The translations under genes and the position numbers were made by a program. From Felis catus (lineage: Eukaryota), in the NCBI RefSeq assembly GCF_018350175.1, contig NC_058382.1, positions 17,484,001 through 17,548,000 of the forward strand: a DNA stretch of 64,000 nucleotides, read 5' to 3'. The notes under the pieces are model-generated. The model saw nothing but the letters and a program-made list of their open reading frames with translations, did no database searches and was not told the origin of the DNA. This document shows positions 36,379-62,856 of this stretch, one piece after another. The number at the start of each line of letters is the position of its first letter. Position 1 is the first letter of the stretch.

Positions 36379-36384
36379 TTTATT
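36379..36384 (-). terminator. Polyadenylation signal of the FCGBP-like gene
   Basis: TTTATT on + in an isolated AT-rich patch 120 nt past the predicted stop. Confidence 0.7.
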
Positions 36385-39221: not shown

Positions 39222-40549
39222 ATGACTACTCAGTCAGTAGTTCCCAGGAGTTGAGCAGCACTTGAGTCAATGTGGGGGATCAGTGGGTCCTGAGAAGTCC
39301 AGGGTGAAGTTTATATAGGGTCTAGAGAGGGTCATGGGAGAGCATGACAAGGACATTTAGCCAATGGAGGTCAATGTGAGAGCACAGTGATGGGAGAGTT
39401 CTATGTTAAAAGGGTATGGAATGCCAATGAGGGATCAAAAGGCCCCAGAGATCAGTGCCAGATTATAAAAAAGTCTTGGCTTTTACTGAGGAAGTCCCTT
39501 ACCCATATTTCCTGATTGGTTCCCACAGCTGCACAGCCATCCCTGAAGCCGATGATCACTCGTGGTTTGAGAGCAGTGCAGCTAGGACAGGGCAGGAAGT
39601 CAGCAATGACATGGAACCAGTCAGGATCCTGGGGCCTGGAACCCACCAATGTGGCTAGCTCATAGGCACAGGACATAACAGGAATGGGTGTGAGCCCACT
39701 GAAGCCATCAAAGGTGGTGAAGAGGCCCCCGGGCACTAGGCGACATGTAGCACCCTCCCTGGGCTCACACCACCGCACACCCCCATCCAGGATGCAGTCT
39801 GTGCCCTGTGGGCAGGAAAAGGGCTGGCACTGGAGGCCTTGACCATGCAAGCATATACAGCGTTCCTGGCAGCCAGGCAGGATCAGTGCCTCCCCAACCT
39901 GCAGAGAGAGAGAGACTCAAAATCAAATTCAAAAAACCTTATCAACAAACAGCTAAGCACATGTATAAAACATATCATGAAGGACTAAGTTCCTTAATAT
40001 ATAAAGAGTTCCTAGAAATAAAAAAGAAAAAGACCAATAAGTCAATATAAAAACATGAACAAAGCTATTCAGAAAGTTAATAGAAAAAGAAATATGTTTC
40101 TTAGGCATTTGAAAAGATGCTCAACCTCCTAACAAGACAAATACAAATTAAAAATCCATTGAGCTGTTTTTCTCTGAGATGGGCAAAAATAAAAAAAGTT
40201 TGATGAATTTCTCCAATTGTCCCCCAAATATCTATTAAGTGTTCTTTTTCAACTAGTATATAATCAAGCTTTGTGTACTGCGTTTGACTATTGTGGTTTT
40301 AAAGTCTGTTTCAATCTGGGACAATCCCTCTGCTTTTTTCACTGGTGTGTGAAAAACCTTAAGAGCTCTCTGCAAGTTCTGATGTGCGGCCAGTGTCAGT
40401 ACTAGTGTGGAGAGGACATGCAATGGCAGCTGTAGCAGCAGCTCTTATGCCCTGTTCCTCCCAGTGTGGGCATGTATTCATTCCTGGGGTTGGTTTGGGG
40501 TTTAAAGTTTATGTATTTATTTTGAGAGTGAGAGTGCAAGTGAGAAAGG

Positions 40550-40604
<55 letters not shown>

Positions 40605-43600
40605 GAATCCCAAGCAGGCTCCACACCACCAGTGCAGAGCCTGATGTGGGGCCTGAACTCACGAACCGTGAGGTCATAACCTGAGCCAAAGTCAGAAGCT
40701 TCACTGACTGAGCCACCCAGGCACCACTAGGGTTTAACCAATCATTTTTTTCGTATCTGGTGGCCTCGAATCTCCAAGACAACTATGTCAGTCATCCCCT
40801 GGGGGGCTTTTCTTTACCTCTGAATGGATTCAAGGAGCTGCAAAGCCTTGAACAGGACGCTTTGCTTGCCGAGGGTCCATCCATCTGTGGTCTTCTGGTA
40901 ACAGCCTTCCAGTTTCTTTGGGGAATTAGCCCCACTTTTCTGTCTGTGGAGTTTCTTAGGTGATATACCTACCCTCTGGCTTCAGCTCTGGCACATGCCC
41001 CAGGTCTGGCTAGTCAGAGACAAATCAGAGTACCCCATATTTCCTGGCCTCTCTGGTTTAGGGATGGGCAAGTGGGACAATAGGAGTCAGCACTGGGACT
41101 TCTGCTGGAACTACTGAGAGAGGGGTCTGTCCTTCCACTGAGATGGCTAAACTGTACATCATAAACTTGGAGAAGAAGGGGACCACCACTGCCCAACATG
41201 CAGAAGTTATTTGAAAATGAGGCTATGCATGTCTTCAAATATCCATTCTCCATTTCTTCCCCAGAATTAGAATTTTTGGCTGCATTCAGGGATACCCAGC
41301 TAAAGATACATCTTCCAGCCTCCTCTGCAGCCAGATGGGGTCCCTTCGTGAAGTTGTGGCCAATGTGATATGAACAGAAGTGATATGTGCTACTTTTGGG
41401 TTATGCCCTTAAAGAGCGGGGCCTGACCTCCCTGTCCCTTCTTTTTCCTGGCCAACTTGCTTGAATGAAGATGTGGTGGGGAGTAGATGATCACAATACT
41501 ACAGGGGAGGTAATGATAGAAGAAACCTGTGTCCCTGACTTGGATGAGCCAAGCTGGTTATTCTTGGACTGTTCATGAGAGAGAAATAAGCTTCTATCAA
41601 ATTTAAGCCACTGTAATTTTGAGACTGTTATAGCATTTGGACCTAGAGCCTACTTGATATAGAAGCTATCATAGAAAAAGGAAAAGACAGGGATGAAAGA
41701 CAGAAAGAAACTTGAGTTCTAGTGACATCATTTGAGTCCCTGAATCCAGCCATGCGTGAAAGCCTCAGATTTAAACAATTAAAGGTAGGTATGTTCCTTG
41801 TTGTATTTAAGATACTTGGCATCCTTTTCTTCATTTACAATGGCAAATGCTGACTGATATAGTGTGGTCCAGGGAACTTTTTTTTTCTTAAGTAGGCTTC
41901 ATGCCCAGCACAGAGCCCAATGTGTGGCTCAAATCACGATCCCGAGATCAAGACTTGGGCTAAGATGAAGAGTCAGATGGTTAGCCAACTGAACCACCCA
42001 GGTGCCCCTGGGGAACATTTTATGACAAGATATGGGAAACTTTGCACCCACCCACCCATGCCTGGGGACCTCTCTTACAGGGATGTAGCGTCCACTGTGA
42101 AAGCAGCCGCAGTGGTCCTGAGACACACAGTCTGTGCCGTCAAAAATGAATCCAGGGTCACACTCACAGCCCTCATAGCATTGGGTAGAACAGTGAGCAG
42201 GGCTGGTAGGCTGGACACAGCCCCCATCACAGGTCCGTGCGCAGATGCTGTAGTGGCTCCGAGGCGGACAAGTCAGAGCTGCAGATGGATGGCAAAGGCT
42301 GGTGCTTAGGACTCAAGTTTCCCTCTCCAATCCTATTGCCTCTTGCCCCAGTCAGGCTAGCTTCCCACTGCTTTAAAAAAAATTTTTTTTAAGACATTGA
42401 TTTAGTTTTGAGAGACAGAAAGACAGAGTGTGAGTGGGGCAGGGGCAGAAAACGAGGGAAACACAGAATCCGAAGCAGGCTCCAGGCTCTGAGCTGTCAG
42501 CACAGAACCCGATGTGGGGCTCAAACTCACAAACCATGAGATCATGACCTGAGCTGAAGTCAGATGCCTAACCGACTGAGCCGCCCAGGTGCCCCCCCAC
42601 TGATATTTTTCAACTTCCACACCTTTGAAATTCCAGTTCTCTCTCCCTTGGATGCCCTTCCCCCCAACACTGCTTAGTCAATTTCATCTACATCAGGACT
42701 GCTCTGATCCCCATCAGGAGAAGGGGCTCTTCCTGCTGCCTTCAACCTGCCCCGGAGGCAACCCACACCCAGCCAGAGCACTCACGGCAAAGCTTGGGTC
42801 CCCTCCAAAGCTTCACAGGGATGCCAGCTTCCTGACAGGCTGCAGTATATGCTGTGAGGGCATCGCAGAGACCAAGGTCCTGACCATGGGTATGACATAC
42901 GTCTTGCAGGCATATCCTGAGGAAAGCCTTGGGGCTGATATGGCCCAGGCAGCGGCCAAAGGGACCATCTGGTGCCTGTAGGAGTCTACACAGTTTGGGA
43001 GCATTGAAGATCTGGGCAAGTTGCGTGGGGCAGCTGATGCTAAAGCCAAGACTGGGCTGGGGCAGTGGGCAGGGGTTAGTGACCAGGCCCCTGGACCAGG
43101 ATCTTGTGTCTAGAGGCACATCAAGGGGGCCAACTTGGCCACCGAAGGCCCCACAGAGCCCCACCAGCTGGCCGTGGAAGGTGGAAGGCACAGTTAGGCG
43201 CACCTGGCTGCCCCAGTCATACATGATATGCAGCCCACAGGCAGTGTGCACCACCACGTGGCGGCCCTCCAACGTGGCCCAGGCCCTGCCCCCCGGCAGT
43301 ACCCAGGGCAGCCGGCAGTGTTCACCATCCACCTGGGGAGGAAGAAAAGGGTCAAGACTGAGGCTGAGAAGGTTGAGCCTGCTCCCACGCCTCCCAGTAT
43401 CCTGGACATCCCTCCCAGCTGTGCCACAAATGAACTGTGAGAGTTGGGTGGAAAAGTTAGCCTCTCTGAACTTTAGTTTCTTTATTTGTAAAATGGGAGG
43501 ATCAAAGTACCTACTTCCTAGGGCTGTTGGGAGAATTAAATAAATCAACAAAAAGTACTTAGAAAAATGCTCAGCATGTGGGAAGTGCTTAATGACCTAG

Positions 43601-46600
43601 GCCAAGACCACCCAAATGCCAGTCCACTCACAGATGTGTGAGAAAGCTGGCTGAGTAAGTCACTGAGAATTTTTTTTTTGAGCTTGTTATGCAGCATTAG
43701 CTGACTAATACAGTTGCTATGAAGATTAAATGAGATGGTACAAGTAGTGCTCAGAACAGTGCCTAGCACATAATTAGCACTAAATAGGTCCCAGGGCCCT
43801 TTCTCTGGCCTTCTCTTCCTCATGAGGTCTCACCACACTTCTTTTTGAAGCTCTCTCTACTTCTGGCTGCCGAATCTCACCACACTCCTGCTTTCTCTGC
43901 TCTGTTTCGCCTAAGTTTTCATCCCCACCCATCCTAGAAGGCCCTAGTGATCTGGCCCCATCACTTCTCCAACCTCATTATCTCTTCTTCAACCCCTTAC
44001 TCACTTACTTGCTCACTCACAAGCTACACTGACTTCCTCCTATTCCTCCAACACACCAAGCACCATCCCAATTCCCTGACCTTCGCACTTTGTGTTCCCT
44101 CTGCCTGGTTTGCTCCCTCCCAGATATTCACATGGACCCCTCCCTTACCTCCTTCAGATCAGTGACTCAAATGTTACTTTGTCAGTAGAGTCTTCCTCAT
44201 CACCTATTCAAAATCCTAAACCTCTTTACACTGTTTCTGTACTCTCTCTTCCTTGTTTTATTTTTCTTTATAGTTTTCTTTTTCTTTCTTTTCTTTTTTT
44301 TTTTTGAGAGAGAGAGAGTCAGAGACAGCATGAGGTGGGGCCGGGGGTGGGGAGTGGGGGTGGGGGGCAGAGAAGGAGGGAGAGAGTAAGAATCCCAAGC
44401 AGGCTCTGGCACTGCCAGTAGTGGAGCCCAATGCGGGGCTCATACCAACCAACTATGAGATCATGACCTGAGCTGAAACCAGAGTTGGACGCTTAACCCA
44501 CTGACCCACCCAGGTGCCCCTATTCTTCGTTACAGTTCTAAACTCATCATCGGATGTACCACCTATTTTACTTATTTATATACTTATCATCTGTTTCCCT
44601 GGAGGAATGTGAGCTCTCCCAGGATTTAGTCATCATCAAATCCTCCGGCCTTTCCTGGACCACCAAGAGACTCTCCATACAATTTACTGAAATAATCCTG
44701 AATGACTAATTTTATTCAATCCTGGGTAGTAGGTGATAATGCATATCTAACAGCTACCCTTTAGTGAGCCATTACTGTGTCCCACGCAATGCTTCCACCT
44801 TGTCACATATTTGCACCATCTCTTAAGTCTTAAGGGACAGCCACGCCCACGTTACATATGGTGGGGGAAACAGAGGAACCTCCAGGAGGAAGAGGGTGGG
44901 GTGTGAGCGCGGTCCAGTGAACCCCTACCGTGATGAAGCCGACAACTGCGCGGTCTAGCTGCAGGTGGTGCCCGGAGAGGTTGAGGTGCAGACTGTGTAG
45001 CCCGGCCCCATCGCGGGCCACGTCCAGGCCGAAGGAACAGGGACCCCGGCGTGGGGTGCGGGCGAGCACTTGCAGGCAGCTCTCAGGAGAGAAGGGCGCG
45101 GGCGGGGGCAGCGTGTGCGTGCGGCCGTCGAAGGCGAGCACGTGCGCGGTCCCGGCCAGGGCGCAGCTGCCTCGGCCGTCGGGCAGGCAGCGGCGCACGC
45201 CCCCGCGCAGGCCGCACACTCGCCCGCGCCCGCACGGCCGCGGCGCGCACGTCACCACGCCGCCCGGGCGGCAGCGGCAGCGGCGTGCGCAGCCTGGCCC
45301 CGGGTACCAGACGGCGCCTAGAGCTCGGTAGCGGCCGGCGCGAAAGCAGCCGCACTTGGCCGCAGGCACGCAGGCGGCGCCGCTTAGCAAGAAGCCCGTG
45401 TCGCACACGCAGCCCTCACAGCAGCGGCTCCCGCAGGCGCCGCGGCCAGAGCGGCTCTCGCTGCCCGCGCACGTGGCTGGGCAGCACGGGCCGCACAGCT
45501 CATAGTGCGAGTGCGGCGGGCACCGTAACGCTGGGGAGACCCGCGGGGGTGCGAGGGCCAGAGCGAAATGAAAGAGATGGAGAGACGCGGGAAAGAAATA
45601 GCGGGGGACAGAGAAAGGGGTAGGCCGGGAGAGAGAAACCGACGCGAAGACAGAGACGGAGGGAGGATAGAGGGTGGGGGTGAGTGGAAGAGCAACATGG
45701 CGGGGAGAGAGGACGAGGAACGGAAAGTGGGAACACCAGGTAGAGATAGTGAGGCGCAGAAAGGGAGACACAGAGCGACACAGAGGCACGGGAGAGACAG
45801 ACAGAAAAAGAGACGGACACAAAAGACAGGAAGATCTCGTTAATTAAACTGCTGTCCCATCCAGGTCTAACTCTTCTTCAAGTCCCACCCTTCTTCACCT
45901 GGCTCCACCCAACCAGGCCTGAACTTCTTCATTGGTCCTCCCGCGTCCGTCCCTCGGTGTCCCAAATCCCAGCTCTTAGGAGTTTCATCCACTATGTATG
46001 CCAAGCCCCGCACACTCACGACAGAAGTCAGGCGTCCTCCACGGCCGCAGGTGCACATCCAGAGCCTGACAGGCGACAGTGAAGGCGGCCAGGGCTCGGC
46101 AGACGATGGGACGGGCTCCGTGGTGGCGGCACACGTCGTCCAGGCAGTTGTCCAGGAATGGGATCGGGTCCAGCGCAGCGTAGCATGGCCCCAAGGGACC
46201 CTCGGCCCCCGCCAGCAGCCCGCAGTACGCGTCTCCAGCGAATCGAGTGCGCGTGGACACTGGACACTGGTTATGGCAGAGGGGCCCGCAGACTGGGCCA
46301 CAGCCTGGCACTTCTGCCACCTTCCAGATGTCGAGCAACGGCACCGTGGGGCTGCTCGGGCCTCTTTGGGCACAGAGTCCACACAGGTAGGGTCCGTAGG
46401 GCCTCGGCAGCGTTACACGTGCCAGGCTGTCCCAATCGTAGGTGAGTGAGAGGCCGAAGTCCGTGTCTACACAGAGCTGGCGGCCTTGGTAGTAGGCACG
46501 GAGGCAGTGGCCGTGAAAGAAGGGCAGCGATTCCAGAATTCCGTCCACCTACAAGGGAGGGCATGCAGGTATCAGCAGGGGAAGGATGTAGTGGCTGTCG

Positions 46601-49600
46601 CAGAAGTTCTTGGAAATGCCAATGAAGGATCAGAGAAGGATCAAGGGGAACATCGGTTAACCAGGGTAGTCATTAGGAATCGCAAGGAGATTCAATGGAA
46701 CATCAGTAGAGGCTAAATGAAGGGTGAGTTAAAGGATCCCACCTTTGGTGGGTGAGTGTGTCAGTGGTAGAGATTAGATGATTAGAGTTAATGAGGGGGT
46801 GGAGTCAGAAGGTGAGTCAATGAGTTAATGTTACAGTCTCAGGAAGGCTTAAAGAGTGAGACTCAGTCAAAGACAGGCTCAATTGGGATATTGGAAAGCC
46901 CTGAGAATTCAGTGGAGGAATCCATATCAATAGGAAGCTCAATGGGAGAATTGGAATGGCTTGGGAACTCAATGGAAAAATCCACAGAGATGTAAATGGC
47001 ATTAATGGGCCAGTCAGTGAATCACTAGGAAGGTCAACAAATAGCTCAGTACAGATCTATGGGGTGAGGGGGGAGGTCAAGAGGACAGTAAATAGGGTTA
47101 ATGGGACAAATCAATATAACTGTAGTAGGATCAGTGGGGAGGGGCAATGAATGGGTTTGTGGGATTTTCAGTGGGAGAGAAATGGAGGGTCGGGCGCCTG
47201 GGTGGCTCAGTTAAGCGTCGGACTTCAGCTTTGGCTCAGATCATGATCTCATGGTTTGTGAGTTTGAGCCCTACCTCGGGCTATGTGCAGACAGCTCAGA
47301 GCCCAGAGCTTGCTTTGGATTCTGTGTCTCCCCCCCTCTCTCTGCCCCTCGCCAGCTTGCACTCTCAAAAATAAATAAACATTAAAAGAAGAAAGAAAGA
47401 AAGAGGGCCAATGGGGAAGTCAAGGCTGAGTCTATGGGTTAAAGGGGAGTCAACTGAGGACTCAGTGGAAGGTTAATGGGAGAATAATAGGAGACTCAAG
47501 GGTAGAAGTCTCAAATAGAAAGTTTGTGGGAAGGGATCAACAGGCAAGTCAATGAATGGGCTACTAGGAAATTGGAGTAGACATCTCTGAGAACCAGTGA
47601 GAGAGTTGATAAAGGGGGTATCAGCAGGAAAAGAGCGGTCTACAGGTTACCTGTGGGTAATGGGCATGGTGAGGGACAGTAGGTACTTATGGAGCCTTTG
47701 AAAACTCACCCGGATGTGGTTGAGATCTTCTGGACTCAGGTCCAGCCTCAGGCCACAGGCTAAGAGGGTCAGGGCCTTGGCCCAGCCACGTGGCCGCAGC
47801 AGTGGGGTCAAATCCAGGCTGAAGGGCTCAAGGTCGGCATGGGCTGTGTCACAGAGACCCGCCAGACGATAGACACAGGAGCCAGGGAATTCGTAGTGAG
47901 CTCCTCCAAATGTGTGGAAGTAGAAGTCTCCAGAGGCAGTGCACACCAGTGGCTTCTCCAGGACAGTGGGACTGGGTGAGGACTGGGCTGACAGGCAGTG
48001 GTACCAGCCACCCGTGAAGGCCTTGCAGTGACCATGGCACTTGTCAGGCCAACACTGGGGAAGTTTGCTCACCAGGGCCCCAAGGGTTGGGCAGTGGCAG
48101 TGCCAAGTACAGTTGTCTGTCCAGAAAGTACGGCCTTGGTGCAGGAAGCAGGAGCAGTGTGCAGGGGGCATGCACTGGCCGTCCTGCAGCAGGTAGCCAG
48201 GCAGGCACTGGCAGGTAGGAGCACAGGGGTGGCTACAGTGCTCTGGGGCTGAGGGGTTGGCACACGTGGCTGGACATGCAGACCCACAGGGAACAAAGCG
48301 GGAGTTTTCTGGGCACTGGGGACTGGGACTGGGGAGCAATGGTGGGGAAACCAGCGGTGGGGCCACAGAGCTAGGGGCAGGGGCCAAGGTGGCTGTGGGG
48401 GAGAGAGAAGATCAAGGACCTATGAGTCCCAGGAGTCTGGGTCACCAGTCCCCTCCTTCCCAGGATGCAGGAGTCATGCCCCAATCTCTGACCCCTGAGA
48501 CTATAGCGCTGGGCACCTTGCAATCGACAGCCTAGGACTCCATCTGTGATGCCACAGACCTCCTCCGTAGGGCAGCTGAAGGGGACACAGGCCACACCTT
48601 CCCCTAGGTGGCAGGTACAGGAGGAGGAGCAATTCTTGATGAGGATAGTCTGGCCCGGCTGTGGAGGAAGGGAGAGACGGTGAAAGGTGAGGTGGTATTG
48701 AAGGGAAGGTGTAGCCAAAGGTTCTGAGATGAGAGGATCCAAATAAACCTCTAACAAGGGCCCAAGAGGATGCTCACAGGGAAGTACAGGCCATTGTGGA
48801 AGCAAGAACAGTGGTCCACAGGGACGCAGTCACCCTTGGCGGGGAAGAATCCATCATCGCACTGGCAGCCCTCAGCGCAGGGAGTGGGGAGCTGTACCAC
48901 CTCCTGAACACCCGCACAGGCCGCGGGACAGGGGTTCACACACAGGCTGTAGTGGCTGTGTGGGGGGCACCGCATGGCTGTGGAGAGGTGGCTTGTCAGA
49001 CTCAGGCAAGCCAGGGGCCTGCCCTCCGCCTCCCCGGCACCCTCAGATTGCATCATTCCCGGAAGACCTCCCCTTAGATTAATCCTAACAGCAGTAACAA
49101 CCGGCAGTGATTGAACAGTGTCTGCGCACTATGCAGTGTGCTAGCTACTTAAGTGCATCCTAGATATGACTAATGTGGCTTCCCTGCTCTTTGTCTTTTA
49201 GGGGGTCTTTCCCCGGCAATCCCAGCCCCTGTTGAAAGGGTTGACCATTACTTGAACCACCAAGTGATCCCACCTCCTATGCTGCTTGTTTGGGTCCATA
49301 AGGAACCTGTCAGTGGATTCTAGTGGTGGAGGTCTTTTCTTGGCCTCTCTGCCCTTCTGACAATAATAACCTCCGCTTGCTTTTTGGCAACTATCCATCC
49401 TTACTTTCAACATGTGGACTGAGGCGATTCCACATCCAGGTTCCAGGGTTGTGTACAGAACCCCAGGGCTGGCTAATCAGATTATTCTTCCCTCCTCTGG
49501 TTCACAATAATTGGACAGGCGAAGCCTTGGGTGGCAAGCCTGGGACTTTAGCTGGGGTCACTGGGAAAAGGATGTTACATTTTTGCAAAGGCACTGAAGC

Positions 49601-52600
49601 TGGTAGAATTGTCAGCTTGAAGTTGCCAAAGCCTTGCGGCTACCACAAGAGGAGAATCTACTTGAGAATAAAGCTAACAGAGAGAGAATGGAAGGGAAGA
49701 AGAAGATGGACAGGGAGAAAAATGGACTTTTTAAATCTGCAGTTGAAAATTCTTAATCTAGCTAAGACTGGAGATAGAAACACCCTCAGTCTTTGCAGTT
49801 ATATGTGCTCCAAATCATTTATTCTTTCTCCCCTCAGTTTGAGTTAGGATGCTGACATCGCTATTAAGAGTCCTGCTGGATACAGTGGCCGCATTGTGTA
49901 CCCATGACCGGCTGGTTGGGTCAGGGCTGGATAAATGACCCTGACAGACAGAGGTGAGGGTGGCCATTGGTCTGTAAGTTAAGAGCAAGCCAAACATTCC
50001 CTCCAAGAACTTTTGAACCTGGAGGCAGAAAGAGAGAGACACTGACACCAAAATGATAAATTGAGGTGGGGCCAAGAGTCCATGAGGATCATGGAGGATA
50101 CACGTGGACATAGAAACGTGAAGTTGATGAGAACCTGTTAAGTGAACAAATATTCAGATGCCAGCTGAGTCATTTTCTAGGTGGGTGATACTGATCAAGT
50201 TCCTTAACCACCTATGCCTTGGTTTCCCTCATCCATAAAATGTACTTGCTTGATGGGGCTGTTGGGAGAATTGAGGGCTTAGCACCGAACGTGTATTCAG
50301 TAAGGTCAGCTGTTCTTTTCATGTTATTACTGGAACTATTTTTACATTATTGTTGGAGAGACACTATAGCATAGGGGTTGAGAGAGAGGATTCTGGAGCC
50401 AGGTGGAAAGGCCAGTTCTGCCCCCTACTGGCTGTGAGATCTGGGGGGATTCTCTGTGCCTCAGTGTCCTCAACTACAGGAGGCAGACGATTATGCCATC
50501 TCCTAGAACAGTTCTAAGATGGAGTGGGCTGACTTCAAGCACACAATACAGGTTCTCAGATCTAGTCTTGCATCCGGGTCTCCTGGAGGGCTTGTTAAAA
50601 CAGGTTGGTGGCTCCCACTCCAGAGTTTCTGATTAAGTCTGGGGCAGGGCAAGACTTTGCATTGTAAACAAGCCCTGAGTGTTGCATTGTAAACAAGCCC
50701 TGTAAACAAGCTGATGCTGCTGGTCCAGGGACTAGGATTTTAACGCAGCGCCTGATATTGAATGAGTGCTCTGTAAACGTTACCTAAGGGATAAAATCAA
50801 ATCTGTTTTCCCAACCACAGCGTGCATGGGACTCTGTCCTGTTTGGTGCTGTGTCCTTAAAATAGGCCGACACATAGTAGGTCTTCAACTAACACCTGCG
50901 TTATGACTGAAGACCAGACCAGTCTCCCGCTTTGGGACCCCACCCCGCGGGGGCGGCTCGTAAAGCCCTCTGGCAGGGGACATACGGCAAAGGCTGGGAG
51001 CCCTCCAGGGCCGCATATCCGCACCAGCCGTCTGGCAGGCAGCCACGTAGGCTTGCAGGCAGGCACAGAGCACTTTGTGGTTCCCGCGGGCGCGGCCCAC
51101 GTCGGCCACGCAGGCCTGGTAGAAGGGCTCCGGCGGCAGGAATGCGTGGCAGGGTGCCAGGGGGCCGCTGGGCTCGCGCAGGAGGTCGCAAGCGCCACGC
51201 CACGCTGCACCCGCGTCCTCGGTGGCCGGGAGGCAGCCCGAACCCGGGCAGGGACGCGGCGCGGCGCAGGGCCCGGGCCTTGGCAGCTGCAGGTCATCCG
51301 TCGCGTTGCCGTTGAAGTTGCCGCAGAGGCCGCGCGTGAGGCCGCGGTAGGCCGCAGGCAGCTCCACGCTCAGGTGGCAGCAGAGCCCGAAAAGCAGGCG
51401 CGGGCCTCCACGCACCGCGAGCACCACAGATGCGCCGCGCGCGAAGGCGCGCACCCTGCCCCCGCTCAGCGCGAAAGGCAGGCAGCGCCGCACGCCGTCC
51501 ACCTGCGGGCAGGGGTGGGGCAGCCTAGAGTCAGGGGGGAGGTCCGGGTCCGGAAGAACTGGGAGAAGACTAGTGGGGAGGAGTAGTGCGGACAGTGGGT
51601 GCGCCAGAACAGGGGAAGAGTGGGCAGGGACTGCTGGAGTGTGAAGAAGGACATGGGGTGAAGGAGAGGGGTCAAGGGGCAGGGCGTTCAAGGCAGTGCT
51701 TGGGTGTGGGTATAGTGGGAAGGTGTGGGGAAACCTGGCAAGGGGAAGGAGAGTGAGGGGAGGGAGAGTGGTGAAATGGGCCTGGAGTGCAGGGACAGAG
51801 GGGAAATTCCTTACTCAGGGACCGAAGAGAGATCTGAGGGCATCTGTGGACCTGGGGGTTGGGGCAGTAGAGCTGGGGAAGAAGAGGGAGGGGATGTGGG
51901 GACAGGAGGAGGAGGAGAGAGGAAGAGGGACCACTTTGGAGAGAAAAAGAGCGGGAAAGCTGGAGAGGAAGGGCAGTGGTGAGGTAGGGGCACCAGAGAG
52001 GGGGTTTGGGCAGCCTGGAGCAGGGGTCAGGGAAGGCTAGGTGGGTGTTGGTAAGAGGTAATGGCAGACGTAGAGCCTGAGAGGGTGCATGGAGATCCAG
52101 GTGGAGGAGGAAAAAAGGCAGAGAGGAGAGATGAAGGCTGTGGGGTGGGAGAGAGGGACAGGTGGGGTGTAGGTACGGGTGGTAGACAGAGAAAGAGGCG
52201 AGGGAAGATGGAGAGACAGCCTGAGCAGCTTGGAACAGGGATGTGCAGACCCAGCTACTGAGAGAGGGATTGAAAGGGGAAGGGGCAGAGAGAGGGAGGA
52301 AGCAGAGAAGGGAGGAGGAGGAGATTATCGGAAATGAGGTTGTTGGAGAGAGGAGAAAATCGGAAGGCGATACTCAGAGATCCCACTGGGCAGAACAGAG
52401 ACTGCCAGGCAGCTGAAAGGAGGCGGGTGACAGGGCGGGGGCTCACCGTGATGTATCCCCAGTCCTCGCAGTCTAGGCCGAAGCGGTGGCCATGCGCGCG
52501 GAGCAGCACGCGGCAGAGTTTGGGCATCCGTGGACCTGTCTCCAGCACCACCTCGAAGGGCCTCCCACCCCGAAGTCGACCCGTGCCCGTGCCTACCAAT

Positions 52601-55600
52601 GAATAGGTGCAGGCGCCCGGGAGGTGGAAGGTGGTGCCGTCGAAGGTGCGATAATAGAGTCCGTCTGTGGCAAAGCAGAGGCCTGGGCCGCCCCGGGCTG
52701 CGCGGCAGGGTTTGCAGGCCACCCGGCCGCCGGGGTGACAGCGGCAGCAGCGACCGGTCGCGGTGGGAGGGGGCGGCAGCGAGGCGCCGGGTTCCAAGTA
52801 GCGGCCGGCGCTCAGGCAGCCGCACTGAGCAGTGGGCACACAGATAGCGCCACTCAGCACAAAGCCCGCGTCGCATACGCAGCCCTCACGGCAGTGCCCA
52901 GCGCGATCGCAGCCGGGTGGTGGCTCCAGCCCCGCGCAAGTGACAGAACAAGCCGGAGCGCACAGCGTGTAGTGCGAGTGTGCGGGGCACAGCGGGCCTG
53001 CGGAACCAGTAGGAATGGAAGGTTACTTTGCGGCCTGTGGCTGTTGGGACTCTCACTCCCTAACTCTGGGGCTAGGATGGGGTATCTGGGGCCCTGCCGG
53101 GGCAAAGCTCTACCTGGGCAGAGCTGCAGGTACCTTCAGATAGCTAAGGATGCGGTGGTTAACCATGCCTCTGATGAGGCGTAGCTAATCTGTAGGGCTT
53201 GGGACGGATAAGAGCTTAGGGGCTAGACCATGAACAGGTCTGAGTCCCTGAGAGGTAAGAGCTGAAGGGTTGGACCATAATCAGGGCTGAGAAGAGGGAA
53301 GGATAAGAGTTGGGGGGCTGGACTTAAATCAGAATACACCTGCCACTTTAGCATGGGCAAAGGTTGAGGGTCTGGTGGGGAGTGGAGGGATGGCTGAAGG
53401 CTGGTGCAGTGGGAAGTACAGGGTCTCAGGGATACATTGTGCAGGGAGGAGCTGGCACTCTGGGATGAGCAACAGCCAAGGAGCCACATCTCAGTCAAGA
53501 GTGGGGCCAGGTTCCCCAGATGAGCAAAGATAGAGAGAGACGCTAGACTGAATCCCTAGGCACTCACTGCACAGGCTTGAATTCCGCCATTGGAAGACTT
53601 GGCCACCCAGCAGCTGGCAAGTTTCACAGTAGAGGCTGAGCATGGGGCAGGGTCCAGTGCCTAGGCATACATCCACCATGCAATCTTGGACATAGGGGCT
53701 TGGTGCCAGCATCTCATGGCACAGCTGGAAGGGCCCCAGAGGGTCCAAAAGGATGTCACAAGGGTGGGCAAAGTGGGTTGGGCTGCTGGTGGTTGGCAGA
53801 GTGACACAAGATGGTGGCAGTGGTGGCATCTTGTCAGCAGCATCCAGGCACCCAGTCGAGGAATCCACCAAATATCTATGGCCAAAGGCCCAGGCCATTG
53901 CATCCTCAGGCAGCTTGGTGCCCAGCACGGTTCCAGGCACCTGGAGGTCATTCATGGGGTCCCCATTATAGTCAGCGCACAGCCCCACCACATGGCCCTT
54001 ATATGCTGCTGGAAGATCCAGTACTATGCGGATCCCAGGGGCATAGGTCACACGCAGGCCAAAGGAACAGCTGACCACAGTGTCCCAGCCATGGCGAAAG
54101 ATGAGTGTATTGTTGCTCAGAGCCTGGAATGGTAGATTCTGCCAGTCACCATTCACCTGTGCAAAGAGGATATGTCAAGGTGGGGCTCTAGGGACCCCGT
54201 ATCATTACCAAGGATGCCAGTGTCCCTAGGTAAGGGTATAAGAGCAGGGCCCCCAGAAGGTCTTTTTGAAGGACTGTCTACAATGACCACCCCCAACCCA
54301 ACAAATAAAAGTTTGGGGTGCTGTCCACAATACTGATACTTTTTCCAACAAATACTTGGATGGTGAGAACTGTGGATTCTGGGGTTTGGGGCTATAGTAT
54401 TCCTGGATCAGATTTGGGGAGATGAAAGCCACAGCTTCTGGAAGTGACACATGTGCAGTGTCTGGCACATGTCTGGTCAATAAATATTTGTTGAGCTAAT
54501 GCATGGATGAGTGAATGAGGCTCATAGGTCAAGTTAGGCTGTAGAGTCCTAGGGATGCTGGGATTTCTAGGTATGGCAGGGGCTTCAGGATACTATGCAA
54601 ATGGTTCAGGGAAGGGAGGTCTGTCCATAGCATATATAAATGTTGAGGCTGCTGTGCATGGTCTAACCATATTTGCCCACAGCATCTGGGGCTGGGGTTA
54701 TAAGAATTTGGGATGAGGGTTTGTAAGCTTTTGGAGTTGGGGATTTGGAATTCCTGGATTGGGTTTAGGGGGTGCCCGGGACTGGGGCTAGAGTTGAGTC
54801 TAAAGTTCAGTTAACACATGTAACTTAGAATAGTGCCTGGAACACAGTAGGTATTCAGTAAGTGACTGTTAAATGAATGAATGAGTGAATGAATGAATGA
54901 ATGAATGAATGAATAAATGGGATTCTTGGGTCAGGACTGGAGTTTCAAGATCCCAGAATCAGGACTGAAAGCTCTGGTGTACTGGGGCTCACAATGAAGG
55001 TTCCAGAATTCTTGAGTCAAGGCTAGGAGTTTTTGTTCCAAGACAATCCAGGCCAGGAGTATTTGTTTCAAACACTTAGGTTGAACTATATGAAATTGCC
55101 GCATTTGTAGGAAAAAACACCAAATATTGGCAGCTTCGTGTCCAATTTTCATAACTACATGTGCAGGACAGTGACGTGTGGTAGTTAAGTGTCCTTTGAC
55201 TTCGGAGCCATGTCACCTGGGCTCAAATCTTGGCTCCTGGTTTGTCTCACTTTGGCAATTTGTTTAACTTCTCTGTAAAATGAGAGAAATAATAATATGC
55301 ACTGGAAAGAATTGTTGTAAGGATCAAGTAAGGATTTGTAATTGTGCCTGGCACGTGTTGGGGTAGACCGTGTTCCTTGGGAAGGCAGAGAGGTCTTAGG
55401 TTCTGGGATTAAGGTCCCTTGGGGCCACCCATAAAGCCGTAGTCAGGGCTAGGCCCCTGGTCCCAAGAAAAGCATAAAATCTGGTCCTCACTCACATGCA
55501 TTCAGGGGCCAGGCAAATAGCTAAATGAGTAAAGTGGAGAGGGTGGGATGTGCTGGGGACTGTGACAAACTAGAGAGAAAGTACGTGCCCCTCGCTAGAG

Positions 55601-58600
55601 AGGGAAGTCCCAAACATACGTGGCCATGAGAATAGGTGACTAGTTGCCAGGGCTTCTAGTTTCTCAAGAGATACCATAAGTCCAGCCTTCTTTATTTAAA
55701 AATGGTAATTCAGTAAGAAATTTAAAATATGGCCAAGGCAAACTGCAGAGAGAAAGTTACTGACAGCCTCTGGGTTCTGTCCTCTGTGGTCGGTGAATAC
55801 TCACCCCCACAGCCCCACAGCTCCTCTCCCAGTGTCCCTATCTTTATTTGTCTTTCCTACCTTGATGAGAAAATTTGTCATGTTGAAGTGGTGTCAGAGT
55901 CATTGGGAACTTGGAATTACATTTCACAAATGAGTAGTTGAGGTCATGTATTTTTTTGATGATTTACAGAGACAGCATAAGAGACCCTGGAGCCCAAAAT
56001 GCCAAGGTTTAAATACTAACTCTCGTATTTATAAGCTGTGTGACCTTGGGCCAATGGCCTCACCTCTCTGGGGCAGTTTCTTCATCTGGAAAATGGTAAT
56101 GCCTATTGTATCTACCTTAAAAGGACTCTTGTGCATTATGTGTTATTTCATTGGCACCTAGCGCGTGTGCCTCCCGAGTGGCCTTTCCAACAGCACCAAA
56201 ACTTCTTTTCCTGGGGAAATTATGGAGGACTGGGAAAGGGGGTTCTGGACTGATGGTTTGCTCCTGAAGTGTTAAGGCTTGAGTTATAATTTGGGGGTTA
56301 GTTTTGGGGGGGTTAAAGTTAGGTGACTGGGTCAGAGATCATGGGGCAAGAGGGAGGAGGTGCAAGATACTGGATTTAAGGTCCAATGTCACAGGACAAA
56401 AACTCAAGGTATGACCCTAGGGTGAGGTTAGGGGGATCTTGGGATCAGGTTTGGGAGTCTTGAGATGAGGACTCTGGGTCAGAGGACATAAGGTGAATGT
56501 GTGGGCAGGGCTGGGGTTTTCTCACCAGGACACGACCAGGTTCCTTGGGGTCCAGCCTCAGATGGAATCCAGACACGTGTACTTCGAGGCTATTCGGGAC
56601 GCCATCAGGACTGGTGCCCAGGAGCACACGGAAGTCAGTGAGCTCCTGTGGCGCTGAAGAACTGCGGCCGCTCAGCAGGTACACGCAAGAGCCAGGGAAG
56701 CGAAAACGGCGCCCATCAAAGGTGATGTAGTGGCCTCTGCCAGCCACCACGCATGTGGCCATGCTCGAGGGCACACACGTGCGCAGGTTGTGTGACAGAA
56801 CGCAGCGCTCATGCGGCCTGCACCCCGTCTCAGTGCAGATCACGCTCCCTCCTAAGGCTGGGCAGAGGCAGCGGCGGCGAGTGCAGCCCACACCCTCCCA
56901 TAAAGCCTCGCCTGGTGCCAGCAGACGTCCCTGGTGCACGCAGCCACAGCCACCAGGCCCTGGGCGCCGGAGGACACAGGCTGGGCCGCTGCGAACATAG
57001 CCAGGATTGCAGGTGCACGTCTCCCCGCAGGGCAGCGGGCAGGACGCTCCCAAGGGCCCCAAGCATGTCTCTGGGCAGGAGGAGCCACATAACTCATAAT
57101 GGCTGTTTTGGGGGCACTCGATAGCTGGGGGAAGAAGGGGAGAAAGATGGAGGGGGAAGGAGTGTTTACATCAGGACCTCCCAGTCTGGTTCCAGAGACC
57201 TAAGTATTTAGCCATCCCTAGAATGGAGATGTTCCTGCCTTCATTTTCCAAGAGTCGTGCCCAGGATCCTGGGGGTCCTCATCCCCTAGAATGGAGGCTT
57301 TCCAGCAATCTCCATCTCACAGAGTAAAGAAGTTTCTATCATCAGAAACCAGAAGTCCTCTTTCAGAACCTTAAAATCTGGCCCTGGGACACAGAACTCT
57401 CACCCCAGACCCTGGAGTCCTCCTTACCTAGAGGACTTTTCCATACACCAAATCCAGGAATCTTGCCTTTTAGAATTAACTAATTCTGAATCCCAGGGCC
57501 TGGAAGCCTTCACCCTCAGGACCCAAAGAATCCTGACCCCAAGACCTAGGGGTTCCAGCCCCCAGAAACAAGAAATCCCACCACTGGGTGGAGGAGTCTC
57601 CATCCCCAGACCCAAGGAACCCTGCCTCCTGAGCCCCTGCAGTCCCATCCCAGGGACCCTGCAGCCTTGTCCTAGGAATCAACTCCAGCCAGCATCAGGG
57701 AGTGCCACCCCTAAGTCCCAGAATCCCCTTCCCTAGTAGCCCATAGCCTTTTGCATCTAAGGGTCACTCACGGCAGCCAGTCTGGGATCTCCAGGAGTTG
57801 ATGCTGACACCTAGGCGCTGACACGCATGTGCGTAGACCTGGAGCATCAAGCAAAGAGTTGGTCGGTTGTTGGAGAAGGGGCAGATCCAAGCACTGCAGC
57901 TGATCTCGAAGGGTGCAGGCCTCAGCACATGGTGGCAATGGCTAAAGGGCCCGTTCAGAGCTGTCAGGATGGCACAGGGCCCCGGGGTCTTCGGTGGGGA
58001 CGATGGCTTGGTGCAGGGAGCAGCCCAGAGGGAGTGGCACGGGTCATCAGGCGGCTGCAGGGTCCAAGTGCGCAAGAAGGCGCGCAGGTCTGGACCGCCC
58101 ACATCATCGATTGGGTCACTGTTGAAGTTGCCACACAAGCCCACCACGTGTGCACGGTAGCCGTCGGTTACTTGCAGAGACAGGGCGTGCTGCCAGTCGT
58201 ACACTAGGCGCAGTGCAGGTGGCTCTTGCTCCAGACCTGCCTCTGCCCATAGTTCTGAGCTACGGAAATACAACCGCAGCCTCCCGTGGAGCAGCGTCAC
58301 TGGCAGCCTAAGCCGCTGCTGGTTCACCTGCAGGGGTGACCCAAGAGCAGCAATCACCAGAGAAAGGGTACATTCCTAAGCATTTAAGGTGGGGTGAGGG
58401 ATGAAAGCTGAGGGGGTTGGGTGTTGGGATACCGAGGGAGTGGGGGTCTGGGAGCTGTAAGGAGGAAATGAGTTAAGATATGAAAAGAACTTGGAACAGA
58501 GTCCACCTCATGGTTAAGTGTCATATGAGGAGGATTTGCTATGTTTGATGTCCCCTAACCCTGGCATCTGGAACCTCCAAATTCTGTGAGCTTTGGACAT

Positions 58601-59761
58601 ATCCTAGGACCACATGCGGCCGCTGGCATGTCTGCAATTTCTCCTCAGGGAACGTTTGGAGGCATTGTTCTTAGGCTTTGTTCTGGCTGGAATGTCACTC
58701 CATGCACTAACCAGGAGTCTTGTTTCCAATACCCAGATGCGACCTCGTGCAAAACTCAGAAGCCTTCCTTTCAGGAATCTTGATAAGTAATTCCACTTCA
58801 GTTAATAGGAGAGCCTTCATCCAGGACCCCAGTGTCTTTCCCCCAATTACCAAGAGCCTTCACCGAGAGCTTCCAGGTCATGTGGATTGGACTTCCATTT
58901 TTTGTGTCAGTTCACCAAGAAGGTTACCAACCCACCTTTTACTCTCACTCACTGCCTCCACCCTGGTCCAACCATCATCTCCTGCCTGGACAATTTCAGC
59001 AACCTCCTCACTGGTCTCTCAGTGCATCCTGAACAAGCCCCATAGTCTGGTCTCCACAGGGAAGCCACAGGGATCCTGTTAACACCCAAGTGGTATTTCA
59101 TCCCTCCTCTGCACACAACCTTCCCTTGGCTTCCACCTTACACAGAATAAAAGACAAAGTTGTTGCAATCTGCCCCCCATGGTCTCTCGCTCTCCTCTGT
59201 ACCACAATCCCTCCCTCTGCTTCAGCCTGGACTTCTTGCTGTTCCTCTAACGTGCCTGTCAGATTCTCACCTTAGGCATTTGCTGTTCCCTCTGCCTAGA
59301 ATTCTCTCAGATACACACATGGCTCTCTCCCTCACCTCTTTTAAGACTTGGCTCAAGTTTCATCTTCTCAGGGAGGCCCTCCTACTTAAGACTCTACTCT
59401 CAGACATCCTGATGCCACTTTTCTGCTCCATGTTTTCCTCCTTAGCATGTATCACCTGCTAAAATACTACATAATTAACTTATATGTATTACTGGTATCT
59501 CTCTGCTAGAATATAAGTACCATGAGAACAAGGATTTTTGTCTGTCTTGGTCACTGATATGTCCTCAGTGCCTTAAACAAGGTCTGGTACATAATAATAA
59601 AACATTCCAGGGTGCCAGGGTGACTCAGTCCATTAAGTGTCTAATTCTTGATTTTGGCTCAGGTTGTGATCTCATGTTTCATGATGAGCCCTGTGTTGGG
59701 CTCTGCGCTGACAACACAGAGACTGCTTAGGATTCTCTCTCTCTGTCCCTCCCCTGCATGT

Positions 59762-59800
<39 letters not shown>

Positions 59801-62142
59801 ATAAATAAACATTAAAAAAATTCCTTAGTTGATGAAGAAACTCAGGAGTGTCAGGTACTTGGGAGATGGGGGCTTATTTGATGACAGTGTAAATCTGAGG
59901 TCCTGAGAATTTGAAGGTACTGGATACCTGGGTTGGGGTGCTGGATTCTGGAGAGCCATAAGAGCACTTGGGGAACTCCCGACTCCTGAGTGACAGGGTG
60001 GGCTCCCAAGTGGCATGTGGAGGGGAGTATGGAGCATCATGGCTCATGCATCAGGTCCTAGCATCATATACTTCTGAGCTTTCCATACCTATTTTTTTAA
60101 NNNNNNNNNNNNNNNNNNNNNNNNNNNNNNNNNNNNNNNNNNNNNNNNNNNNNNNNNNNNNNNNNNNNNNNNNNNNNNNNNNNNNNNNNNNNNNNNNNNN
60201 NNNNNNNNNNNNNNNNNNNNNNNNNNNNNNNNNGGCTCCACACTATCAGTACAGAGCCTGATGTGGGGCTCGAGCCCACAAACTGTGAGATCATGACCTG
60301 AGCCAAAGTCAGACACTCGACAAACCAACCGACCGAGCCATCTAGGCGCCCCACATTAGCCTATTTGATCCATACCACAGTCTGATGACTTAGGTCTTTG
60401 TATCATCCTGATTTCACAGATGAAGAAACTAAGGCTCAGAGAGGTTAAATAACTTGCCTAAGGTCATACAGATAACAGGTGGTCAACCTGGGATTTGAAC
60501 TCAGGCCATCAGGTTTCTAGATCACATTCTTTCTAACATGGTACTGAGGAGTGACTCAGTATGTCCATAACCTCATAGGTTTGCTCTCTCTAGCAATCCT
60601 GATTAAATGTAGTCTAGTCTCCACAACCTTCCAATCAGAGCAATGCGGTCAAACCTTTCCCGAGGAGAAACTGTGGACATGCCAGTGTCCATACCTGCAT
60701 GTGGTCCTAGGCTATGTCCAAAGCCCAGGGGACTTAGAGGTTCCAGTTGTGTCAGGAGACAATAAACATAGCAAACCCACCTCATATGACACTTACCATG
60801 AGGTAGACTCTGTTCCAAGTGCCTTTCATATGTTAACTTATTCCTGCTTCATAGGAACCTGTTAAGGTAGGGCTAGAGATCCATTAGCCCTTATCCACAA
60901 TCCCCAAATGCAAAAGCGGCCTGAAGACTGAAAGATGTTTCGTGTGTTTGATGTTAAAATGTAATTGGCACCAAAAGCTCACCTGAACTCATGACATGGC
61001 CGCTTATGGTCTTAATTTATCCCAGTTAGTGTGAATATTCGGATATTTCACTGCAGAGATACTAATGTTTGTAATTATGTGACATCCATTGGGATTATCA
61101 TATAACATATGGCATTTGCACGGTATGACCATTTGAAATTTCAAAATCTGAAATGCACCTGGCCCCAAGCCTTTTGGATAAGGGACTGTGGACCTATATA
61201 ATTGCCTCCACTGTAGAGTTGACAAAAATGAGGGACAGACAAGGATACAGTTTCCCAGGATCCCACACATAATTATTCTTACCCGGACAAAGCCGAACTC
61301 ATGTTTGACAGCAGTGATGGTGATGCCAAAAGCGCGCATTGTGACAAAGCGCATGGGCTGCCTCCCTCCAGAGCAGGCGATCCACAGCTGGAAGGCAGGG
61401 AGGCCACTGGGTAGGGCCTGAGGGCAGTGGCTCAGGATGTAGGTACATCCCCCAGGCACAGGGAAAGAGTAGCCATCAAAAGTGTAGATGTATGGTAGCC
61501 CGGAAGCCCAGCAGGTACCCCCTGGGACGCCCCCCTGCCTCTTACTAGAGACACCCACTGTCTCTGATTTGGTCTGAGACACCATTTTGGACCCAGACAC
61601 AGTTTCAAGTTCCTGTTTTGCCATAGTCACAGCCTCTAAGCCTGGTTCAGTCCCTGCCACCACCTTGAGCCCCAACTTGGCCACTGAGACAGTTTCTGAC
61701 CTAGACCCAGACACTATCTTGGGTTTGGACTCTGGTTCAGCTATGGGCATTGGCAGGGGTAAAAGTACAGGTGCCGATAAAGCCACAGTCAGGGTTTCGG
61801 GAATTGGTTCTTTTACAGACAGAAGTCCAGGTTCTGGTTCAACCAAAGCTATAGATTCAGGCTGAGGTTCATTCAAAACCCCTTGTGCAAACCCTGGATA
61901 AGCCATGGTCACTGCTACAAGTCCTGGTTCTGCTTCAGGTGTGCTTTCTGATCCTGGTTTGGCCACTGCCATGGTTTTAGAGCTGGAGATGGACGCTGTT
62001 TCGAGGTCCTTCAGAGATATTGTCTTGGAACTGAACACGATGTCAGACCCAAATGTGGTCTTCGTGCTGGCCACACACTCAGGTTTGTGCTTTACAAGAT
62101 GACATGTGGTCCCATCGGAGCATGCGTGGTCCTTACAGGATC
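36504..62142 (-). CDS. IgGFc-binding protein (FCGBP)-like multi-VWD/C8/TIL protein, 5'-partial, ~2,436 aa in window
   Basis: 16 exons in transcription order: 62142-61283, 58327-57772, 57124-56526, 54156-53568, 52997-52447, 51502-50986, 48977-48778, 48658-48517, 48392-47710, 46548-46020, 45530-44929, 43332-42786, 42278-42079, 39898-39503, 36976-36687, 36552-36504 (7310 nt). All GT-AG, phases compatible, no internal stop. Repeated C-x-x-x-G-x-x-x-x-x-TFDG, GLCGNFN, GPFxxCH..Y..AC..WR and CPxxSHYxxC motifs. The last small exon is inferred; without it the frame ends FNNW* at 36683. Confidence 0.9.
37761..38310 (-). mobile_element. Cluster of three Can-SINEs (approx. 37761-37970, 37990-38204, 38205-38310)
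   Basis: Three reverse SINE heads; the first is flanked by CAATCACAG direct repeats. Confidence 0.85.
39181..39222. repeat. (AGT)n microsatellite
   Basis: About 14 perfect trinucleotide units. Confidence 0.95.
39960..40205 (+). mobile_element. Old L1 (ORF2 3' region) fragment
   Basis: Translates to GLSSLIYKEFLEIKKKKTN, similar to the younger L1 at 62.9 kb ([14 protein letters not shown]). Confidence 0.7.
40500..40726 (-). mobile_element. Can-SINE with (GA)n
   Basis: Reverse SINE; (AG)n at 40553-40598. Confidence 0.85.
42380..42597 (-). mobile_element. Can-SINE
   Basis: Reverse SINE consensus. Confidence 0.85.
44290..44520 (-). mobile_element. Can-SINE
   Basis: Reverse SINE consensus with T tail. 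Confidence 0.8.
47190..47403 (+). mobile_element. Can-SINE
   Basis: GGGCGCCTGGGTGGCTCAG head, AATAAATAAAC and A-rich tail. Confidence 0.85.
50548..50735. mobile_element. MER5A-like hAT element with internal tandem duplication
   Basis: GGTTCTCA..CTTGTTAAAACAG..CAGAGTTTCTGATT..GATGCTGCTGGTCCAGGGAC; TGTAAACAAGC occurs three times. Confidence 0.6.
54872..54915. repeat. (TGAA)n tract, typical of an L2 3' end
   Basis: Follows AGTGCCTGGAACACAGTAGGTATTCAGTAA. Confidence 0.7.
59610..59820 (+). mobile_element. Can-SINE
   Basis: Head, (CT)n, A tail; ATTCC/TTCC-like flanks. Confidence 0.8.
60234..60352 (-). mobile_element. Can-SINE (3' part inside an N gap)
   Basis: Reverse head at 60352. Confidence 0.8.
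60874..61198. mobile_element. Tigger/mariner-like MITE
   Basis: Imperfect terminal inverted repeats TAGAGATCCATTAGCCCTTATCCA ... TGGATAAGGGACTGTGGACCTATA with TA flanks. Confidence 0.55.
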
Positions 62143-62843: not shown

Positions 62844-62856
62844 GAATTGTGTGTGT

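Follow-up and report, generated by a model that had tools for sequence, protein, structure and literature searches.

An apparent old paralogue of FCGBP in the cat whose six VWD domains lack the GDPH self-cleavage motif

The stretch analyzed here, referred to as the window, comprises 64,000 nucleotides of the Felis catus genome (assembly GCF_018350175.1, contig NC_058382.1, positions 17,484,001 to 17,548,000 of the forward strand). Its minus strand carries an FCGBP-like gene of 16 exons with a 2,435-codon open frame, and none of the six VWD domains encoded there contains GDPH, the motif at which FCGBP VWD domains cut themselves. The gene adjoins SDHAF1 on the upstream side of the latter. All 15 introns have GT/AG ends and the phases are consistent across the 16 exons, and a pseudogene test confined to these window exons found no stops, frameshifts or broken splice sites. 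The final 134-base intron and the 49-base last exon (36552-36504), which adds a tail cysteine, were revealed by the tails of orthologues; a 15-exon model (62142 down to 36683), in which exon 15 is read through to its in-frame stop, was ruled out because the orthologues show the 16th exon. The 5' end of the gene lies beyond the window, because exon 1 of the window model starts in phase 1 and orthologues carry approximately 490 extra N-terminal residues, including a start that resembles a signal peptide and an IgGFc_binding domain (the N-domain). In the exons, Pfam identifies VWD, C8, TIL and TILa domains (six VWD, five C8 and six TIL in total), with a lone VWD at the end. The exons are listed below; exons 1 to 15 were defined by Pfam and the splice model, and any further evidence is given in brackets.

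61283-62142, minus strand: exon 1 in the window; Cys-rich unit, spacer of ~180 aa rich in Ser, Thr, Pro, Glu and Val, N-half of VWD1 (orthologues)
57772-58327, minus strand: exon 2; C-half of VWD1 and C8
56526-57124, minus strand: exon 3; TIL-E and N-half of VWD2
53568-54156, minus strand: exon 4; C-half of VWD2 and C8
52447-52997, minus strand: exon 5; TIL, short E, N-half of VWD3
50986-51502, minus strand: exon 6; C-half of VWD3 and C8
48778-48977, minus strand: exon 7; TIL3
48517-48658, minus strand: exon 8; E (TILa) domain, weak donor GTGCCC
47710-48392, minus strand: exon 9; Pro-rich linker, orphan TIL-E at the site of the missing D4 VWD-C8, N-half of VWD4 (pairwise scores)
46020-46548, minus strand: exon 10; C-half of VWD4 (without the CGN..D motif) and C8
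44929-45530, minus strand: exon 11; TIL-E and N-half of VWD5
42786-43332, minus strand: exon 12; C-half of VWD5 (without the CGN..D motif) and C8, joined to exon 13 in a public contig (contig)
42079-42278, minus strand: exon 13; TIL (contig)
39503-39898, minus strand: exon 14; E domain and N-half of VWD6, with a CxxC loop at ~39578-39589 (alignment)
36687-36976, minus strand: exon 15; C-half of VWD6, no C8 after it
36504-36552, minus strand: exon 16; completes the tail Cys, stop codon, tail matching other felid database models (orthologue alignment only)
36379-36384, minus strand: AATAAA, candidate polyadenylation signal, ~460 bases upstream of the SDHAF1 start codon (sequence)

Full-length orthologues begin with PF17517 (FCGBP_N / IgGFc_binding; P0290, E 1.2e-43, and P0317). 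Pfam detects only VWD, C8, TIL, TILa and IgGFc_binding domains in two full-length orthologues, and none of the marker domains of tectorin, zonadhesin, otogelin, VWF or SCO-spondin (marker list from PMC4948705). The N-domain, the tandem VWD-C8-TIL-E assemblies with a lone terminal VWD and the lack of foreign markers place the gene in the broad FCGBP family. The spacer before VWD1 (61520-62065, minus strand) is not seen in cat FCGBP, and the region between N-domain and VWD1 in orthologues spans 232-311 aa with ~30% Pro, Thr and Ser, possibly an O-glycosylated stalk.

The initial annotation of this DNA had reported six different motifs in place of GDPH, and all of them translate from the minus strand as it had described:

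61490-61501, minus strand: VWD1 motif GLPY, FCGBP D1 equivalent, true loss (translation, pairwise scores, orthologues)
56730-56741, minus strand: VWD2 motif GRGH, D2 equivalent, true loss (translation, pairwise scores, orthologues)
52654-52665, minus strand: VWD3 motif DGLY, D3 equivalent, true loss (translation, pairwise scores, orthologues)
47920-47931, minus strand: VWD4 motif GDFY, D5 equivalent, true loss with Gly-Asp retained (translation, pairwise scores, orthologues)
45142-45153, minus strand: VWD5 motif GTAH, positional equivalent of D6, which is already GDPH-free in FCGBP (translation, pairwise scores)
39722-39733, minus strand: VWD6 motif PGGL, equivalent of the terminal D7/D13, which likewise has no GDPH in FCGBP (translation, domain tree, pairwise scores)

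No VWD has Asp-Pro at the motif position, again as first reported; the spliced model is free of GDPH, and its eight Asp-Pro dipeptides lie elsewhere. Each motif has a Cys 4-5 residues ahead of it and is followed, two residues on, by TFDG, AFDG or TFGG. The flanking Cys and FDG had been described as largely kept, which holds for the Cys in all six domains and for FDG in five, VWD4 reading TFGG.

Pairwise scores map the six window assemblies to FCGBP D1, D2, D3, D5, D6 and D7, in that order; a single-domain VWD tree was set aside for this purpose, as the quick tree resolved only the terminal VWD. The D6 label is the weakest and rests partly on position, since VWD5 scores best on platypus D6 but, in the cat, on D3 (194, against 193 for D5 and 185 for D6). 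The D4 VWD-C8 is missing, which leaves two TIL-E units in a row, and the same arrangement is found in dunnart. In FCGBP the last two VWDs, D6 and D7, lack GDPH (PMC11796319), just as the initial annotation had stated. Its count of six substitutions is thus too high: VWD1 to VWD4 are true losses, but VWD5 and VWD6 match domains that were already GDPH-free and have inherited that state. Of five ancestral cleavage sites, four were substituted and one, in D4, was deleted.

Homologue searches and cluster look-ups recovered close relatives in carnivores, shrews, elephant, three marsupials and platypus. Felid copies are 95-100% identical to the window protein, those of other carnivores 76-85%, shrew and elephant copies 66-68% and marsupial copies 52-53%, and a Felis catus database model is 100% identical over 690 aa. 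Database entries named "IgGFc-binding protein-like" from Carnivora, shrews, elephant and marsupials are these orthologues (e.g., XP_045296879.1, XP_038317769.1, XP_074162790.1), and full-length models of 2,897-3,181 aa with six GDPH-free VWDs are available for arctic fox, raccoon dog, sea lion, grey seal, black-footed ferret, tammar and dunnart. GDPH does not occur in any of the 43 other therian orthologue proteins (33 species), so the retention of GDPH in orthologues that would have pointed to a recent, lineage-specific decay is not seen; because replacements such as GLPY are moreover fixed, the loss is not recent. Counting the window protein, the clade totals 45 proteins from 35 species, of which 44 lack GDPH; the exception is a platypus model (P0032), whose GDPH was rejected as a retained site since its domain is D2-like, is preceded by a D1-like one and has no counterpart among the window domains. 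In P0032, D1-, D2- and D3-like domains (residues ~1450-2393) follow the paralogue part, which suggests a neighboring FCGBP-like gene fused by prediction. For comparison, the mammalian FCGBP-type proteins picked from 83 search matches all carry between two and seven GDPH (57/57), and 41 of them carry five. The contrast with the 44 GDPH-free proteins of the paralogue clade exceeds what chance would give.

The replacement motifs differ in how strictly they are kept; in the counts that follow, sites under an identity cut-off or with gaps were dropped. VWD1 reads GLPY in 24/24 species and VWD4 reads GDF followed by His, Tyr or Arg in 27/27, with GDFY in felids, GDFR in marsupials and GDFH also in the platypus model. 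The VWD2 motif is GGGH, GRGH, GAGH or GTAH in 27 species, and VWD6 is PGGL-like in 29. VWD5 shows eight forms in 26 species, while VWD3 is the most variable site with ten forms in 21.

Cat FCGBP is a separate protein (P0045) with five GDPH, 35-37% identical to the window protein, and belongs to a second group of homologues, named FCGBP, at 32-37% identity. Trees were built on the colinear D1-D3 block and on the N-domain, and all of them were flagged for uneven letter make-up. On the D1-D3 block, the platypus, marsupial and placental copies form one clade with a Shimodaira-Hasegawa-like approximate likelihood ratio (SH-aLRT) support of 100, and a duplication after the monotreme split is rejected by the approximately unbiased test (p-AU 1.35e-7). 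FCGBP proper would be expected to group with mammalian FCGBP orthologues and to carry GDPH in all but its last two VWDs; the window gene does neither, with GDPH in 0/6. These comparisons identify it as an old FCGBP paralogue and not FCGBP itself, with a duplication that predates the monotreme split. The gene is thus more than approximately 180 million years old, and perhaps as old as amniotes. The sister group differs by tree, being mammalian FCGBP in two (support 98 and 91) and alligator P0271 in a third (65), with P0271 absent from the tree that gives 98. The deep profile search with the N-terminal domain returned no clear non-mammalian orthologue in the best 150 of 4,661 matches. P0271, with the motifs GHPH, GETH and GDPH and a terminal RGDI, is a candidate distant orthologue; between its N-domain and VWD1 (residues ~400-990) it also carries a long tandem array of ~27-residue Cys-rich units. 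A representative search further returned vertebrate-type proteins (P0109-P0114) in which the FCGBP N-terminal domain is repeated in tandem up to 17 times.

In FCGBP D10, D>A, D>N and H>N mutations each block GDPH cleavage (PMC10880436). The autocatalytic Asp-Pro cleavage that FCGBP proper undergoes in the ER is predicted to be absent from the window protein, on the strength of its motifs and these published mutants; of the non-self-cleaving FCGBP-like protein initially proposed, the FCGBP-like nature and the absent motif are established and the loss of cleavage is a prediction from those mutants. Both Gln4094 (Asp+14) and the beta5-beta6 hairpin of D10 form hydrogen bonds with the Asp of GDPH and with the ends left by the cut, and point mutants that stay uncut melt earlier, are trypsin-sensitive and would not crystallize (PMC10880436). 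Hairpin span and Asp+14 were measured in 475 of 488 candidate VWD segments, which are related to one another, so that the counts are descriptive and do not represent independent events. Among DPH-bearing VWDs the span is 20 in 273/283 and Asp+14 is Met or Gln in 277/283. Window VWD1-5 have spans of 14-17, and Asp+14 is Pro in 6/6 window VWDs and in 50/66 paralogue domains. The long-uncut D6 of FCGBP likewise has a short span, of 15-16, and carries His at Asp+14, whereas isolated GDPH losses elsewhere (GASH, GTSH, GATH, GDRS, GNSH; e.g., rodent GASH and bird GATH) keep spans of 19-21. This pattern suggests that the domains have been re-fitted to the uncut state and are not merely damaged. VWD4 and VWD5 additionally lack the CGN..D motif, which we take to be a calcium site. 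A confident AlphaFold model of the near-identical VWD5-VWD6 part of the jaguarundi protein (predicted local distance difference test, pLDDT, 78.8) has mouse FCGBP (8RDE) as its best PDB match, which shows no more than retention of the fold; for the VWD4 region, the model built on 13 aligned rows was of no use (pLDDT 38.9).

Taken together, the gene is probably an old, GDPH-free FCGBP paralogue that encodes a likely secreted, mucus-type scaffold, folding uncut and remaining one chain of ~2,900 residues even when reduced. After duplication, its VWD domains would have been re-fitted to the uncut state as the uncut D6 of FCGBP was. Since hairpin and Gln both contact the Asp and the cut ends, and point mutants that remain uncut lose stability, the joint loss of motif, hairpin and Gln would yield a stable uncut domain and not a damaged one. 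Reduced FCGBP falls into 40-55 kDa pieces (PMC8267560). The product of the window gene would release no such pieces on reduction; it would be a backbone-continuous, reduction-resistant tether without a reactive Asp-anhydride. Several observations weigh against this reading, and they are taken here together with the alternatives that they favor. One of a general kind is that the signal peptide and N-domain are taken from orthologues, their exons lying beyond the window.

One challenge comes from the pace of evolution. The paralogue changes faster than FCGBP (cat-elephant identity 66% vs. 80%, cat-platypus 44% vs. 60%) and its stem branch is long (0.67 vs. 0.23). The black rhinoceros models P0089 and P0004 align with the window exons partly out of frame, exons 4, 6 and 11 being matched in frames that do not code, and this points to a frameshifted pseudogene in the rhinoceros. 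Among the matches of the word-limited homologue searches there is no orthologue from primates, rodents, bats or ruminants, which does not prove loss. The low contig depth described below and the freely variable VWD3 motif point in the same direction: a relaxed duplicate whose protein is made and uncut, in which GDPH was lost as cleavage ceased to matter, with no new role and lineage-by-lineage loss of the gene. The functional divergence proposed by the initial annotation is an inference, as relaxed constraint after duplication could also account for the motif loss given the faster evolution and the rhinoceros frameshift. Against relaxation, the frame is open and the cysteines are kept from cats to marsupials; Cys is retained at 91-97% of aligned positions in five orthologues, vs. 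50-82% for other residues. A rough calculation with assumed rates gives a neutral expectation of 35-77 disabling changes since the cat-dog split, of which none is seen. GLPY in all 24 species, GDF in all 27 and the new cysteines of the terminal VWD in 39/39 orthologue proteins likewise argue for constraint, and a relaxed duplicate is considered unlikely but a real rival.

VWD4 raises a different concern, since it keeps Gly-Asp, with His in 17/27 species. Its catalytic Asp (GDFH in most species) might permit a slow Asp-Phe cut, so that the chain would still be cut once; alternatively, a secretory protease could act in the spacer before VWD1. The invariance of Gly-Asp-Phe in 27/27 species, and GDFH in the platypus model, fit such a cut. 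However, the labile bond is Asp-Pro, and H>N is sufficient to block cleavage in FCGBP D10 (PMC10880436), while felids read GDFY and marsupials GDFR. The VWD4 hairpin is also three residues short, with Pro at Asp+14, and dog lacks the basic pair that precedes VWD1 in the window. A single remaining cut is thus very improbable.

Evidence for the transcript is concentrated on one junction. Four of 24 runs, with coded tissues, were mapped to 41900-43400, and the RNA nature of the three runs that gave exon contigs is only a guess. An 854-base contig of run X6 covers 42077-42278 and then directly 42786-43333, and so spans the junction of exons 12 and 13; in X8 and X11, too, contigs break off at the ends of these exons with letters left over. 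Less favorably, contig depth is 3-13, X8 and X11 also hold intronic contigs, the 2% read of the poly(A) raw-read run X24 gave no reads on exon 12, and splice support covers 1/15 introns. Felid and canid database models are often fragments, those in RefSeq being mostly partial (170-2,243 aa). With only that junction verified and a weak exon 8 donor, the locus might instead give several shorter transcripts and proteins, the six-VWD protein being a construct of annotation. Yet the phases fit through all 16 exons, full-length models exist in seven species, the partial models end by running into introns, and X6 and X8 contigs extend beyond exons 12 and 13 on their outer sides. There is little room for this explanation, which we regard as the least credible of those set out here.

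At the protein level, dog saliva gel bands of 53-75 kDa have been assigned to a 318-kDa "IgGFc-binding protein" (PMC6008695), and a separate dog saliva list includes one peptide as "IgGFc-binding protein-like" (PMC6279226, Table 2). Among the proteins compared, the peptide matched only the dog and jackal orthologues. It is a single match with a score of 10.28, in a list with many doubtful identifications, and is thus weak. Goblet cells secrete FCGBP proper into mucus; what bears on this for the paralogue is the weak dog saliva peptide, the tissues of the runs being coded. The 318-kDa protein is presumably ordinary FCGBP.

An uncut chain need not be a single molecule. FCGBP dimerizes through C5284-C5403 (PMC11796319), and the window protein has Cys at both positions: the first Cys of the exon 14 CxxC aligns with human C5284 and the tail Cys of exons 15-16 with C5403. 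Both are also present in the carnivore, shrew and dunnart orthologues aligned, and each has gained a neighboring Cys, through the CxxC loop and through a Trp-to-Cys change in the tail. Among 113 terminal VWDs, the loop is found in 39/39 orthologue proteins and otherwise only in alligator P0271. Pairing between chains and local pairing are equally possible for these cysteines, and the chance that chains are paired tail to tail by disulfides is about even. A complex prediction that paired the terminal VWD with itself (score 0.00, alignment not used) gives no verdict and counts neither for nor against a dimer. The description "single-chain" given at first thus stands as an uncut chain, which is predicted, but this chain may be part of a disulfide dimer as both dimer cysteines are kept; the initial interpretation as a whole is partly supported.

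A bolder version of the uncut-paralogue reading can be formulated, although we hold it only tentatively and think it rather doubtful. The gene would represent an overlooked second FCGBP lineage, possibly amniote-old in view of the CxxC loop shared by alligator P0271 alone, in which stepwise loss of cleavage produced a reduction-resistant, backbone-continuous scaffold of mucus or saliva. The extra loop and tail Cys could double the dimer link or chain polymers, and the gene would have been kept in carnivores, shrews, elephants and marsupials and lost in humans and mice. If true, the latter losses would explain why the second lineage is unstudied.

The relationship to known systems is closest with FCGBP in its seven-VWD mammalian form (mouse 8RDE and 8R0T, human D10 8QCI), which shares the N-terminal IgGFc_binding domain seen in orthologues, the tandem VWD-C8-TIL-E, the lone terminal VWD, the GDPH-free last two VWDs and Cys at both dimer positions, and is the best PDB match in sequence and fold. 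The paralogue differs in being a separate gene 35-37% identical to cat FCGBP, with zero instead of five GDPH, the D4 VWD-C8 deleted to leave an orphan TIL-E, the ~180-aa Ser/Thr/Pro/Glu-rich spacer, shorter hairpins, VWD4 and VWD5 without CGN..D, and, in its terminal VWD, the CxxC loop together with additional cysteines. Rodent Fcgbpl1 is likewise a duplicate of FCGBP in mammals, with some of its GDPH sites lost (mouse GASH and GDPT), but it nests inside the FCGBP clade, has 3-4 GDPH left and shows hairpins of full length. Certain FCGBP-like proteins of frogs and turtles (Xenopus laevis P0217/P0258, Pelobates P0186, Ranitomeya P0236, Mauremys P0168) resemble the paralogue in their FCGBP-type N-domain, 3-6 VWDs and lack of GDPH. 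They fall outside the paralogue clade, however (P0217 and P0168 in the D1-D3 tree, four in the N-domain tree), and complete GDPH loss has thus arisen more than once. The uncleaved D assemblies of VWF, MUC2 D1-D3, MUC5AC and MUC5B have the VWD-C8-TIL-E fold without a cleaved GDPH (PMC10880436 and fold matches) but show 19-25% identity in fold matches, another architecture and no FCGBP-type N-domain.

A literature search that reached few subscription journals found no paper describing the paralogue family or its GDPH loss. The parts covered of PMC4948705 do not mention GDPH or a mammalian paralogue, although its supplementary figure S5 lists 974 FCGBP_N proteins, which may include paralogue orthologues. 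The orthologues are already auto-annotated and apparently unstudied. What GDPH cleavage does for VWD domains is described as unknown in the Discussion of PMC10880436, and the destabilization of point mutants, which would not crystallize, makes them poor controls. The paralogue would be a natural control for the purpose of self-cutting, with four naturally uncut counterparts of FCGBP D1, D2, D3 and D5 that persist across therians, and hairpin length and the Asp+14 residue would be changes that may make an uncut domain stable. It is also a large predicted secreted protein of cats and dogs that would be confused with FCGBP in proteomics. The surprise is limited, as uncut VWDs are common, the gene is auto-annotated and GDPH-free FCGBP-like proteins occur in other vertebrates.

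On the same strand, the neighboring single-exon gene at 35567-35923 (start codon at 35923) encodes 118 aa with a LYR domain by Pfam. We take it, from its sequence, to be SDHAF1, and the last exons of the FCGBP-like gene lie in or beside its CpG-rich promoter region. Exons at 1100-26700 on the plus strand encode a THAP domain and ankyrin plus CAP-Gly domains (CLIP3-like). Further exons in that interval are presumably ALKBH6 and SYNE4, Pfam having failed to identify those tried. These neighbors fit the LRFN3-SDHAF1-CLIP3 block (PMC3380836), which would place LRFN3 beyond the end of the window. Exons 5, 6, 11 and 15 of the FCGBP-like gene are CpG-island-like (GC 0.67-0.75, CpG observed/expected 0.83-1.04, against 0.15-0.27 in adjacent CpG-poor exons). 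The window contains five N assembly gaps, none of which falls inside these exons. A fragment at 62820-63940 is presumably LINE-1-like, and the introns hold many copies of what we take to be carnivore-type short interspersed elements (SINEs).

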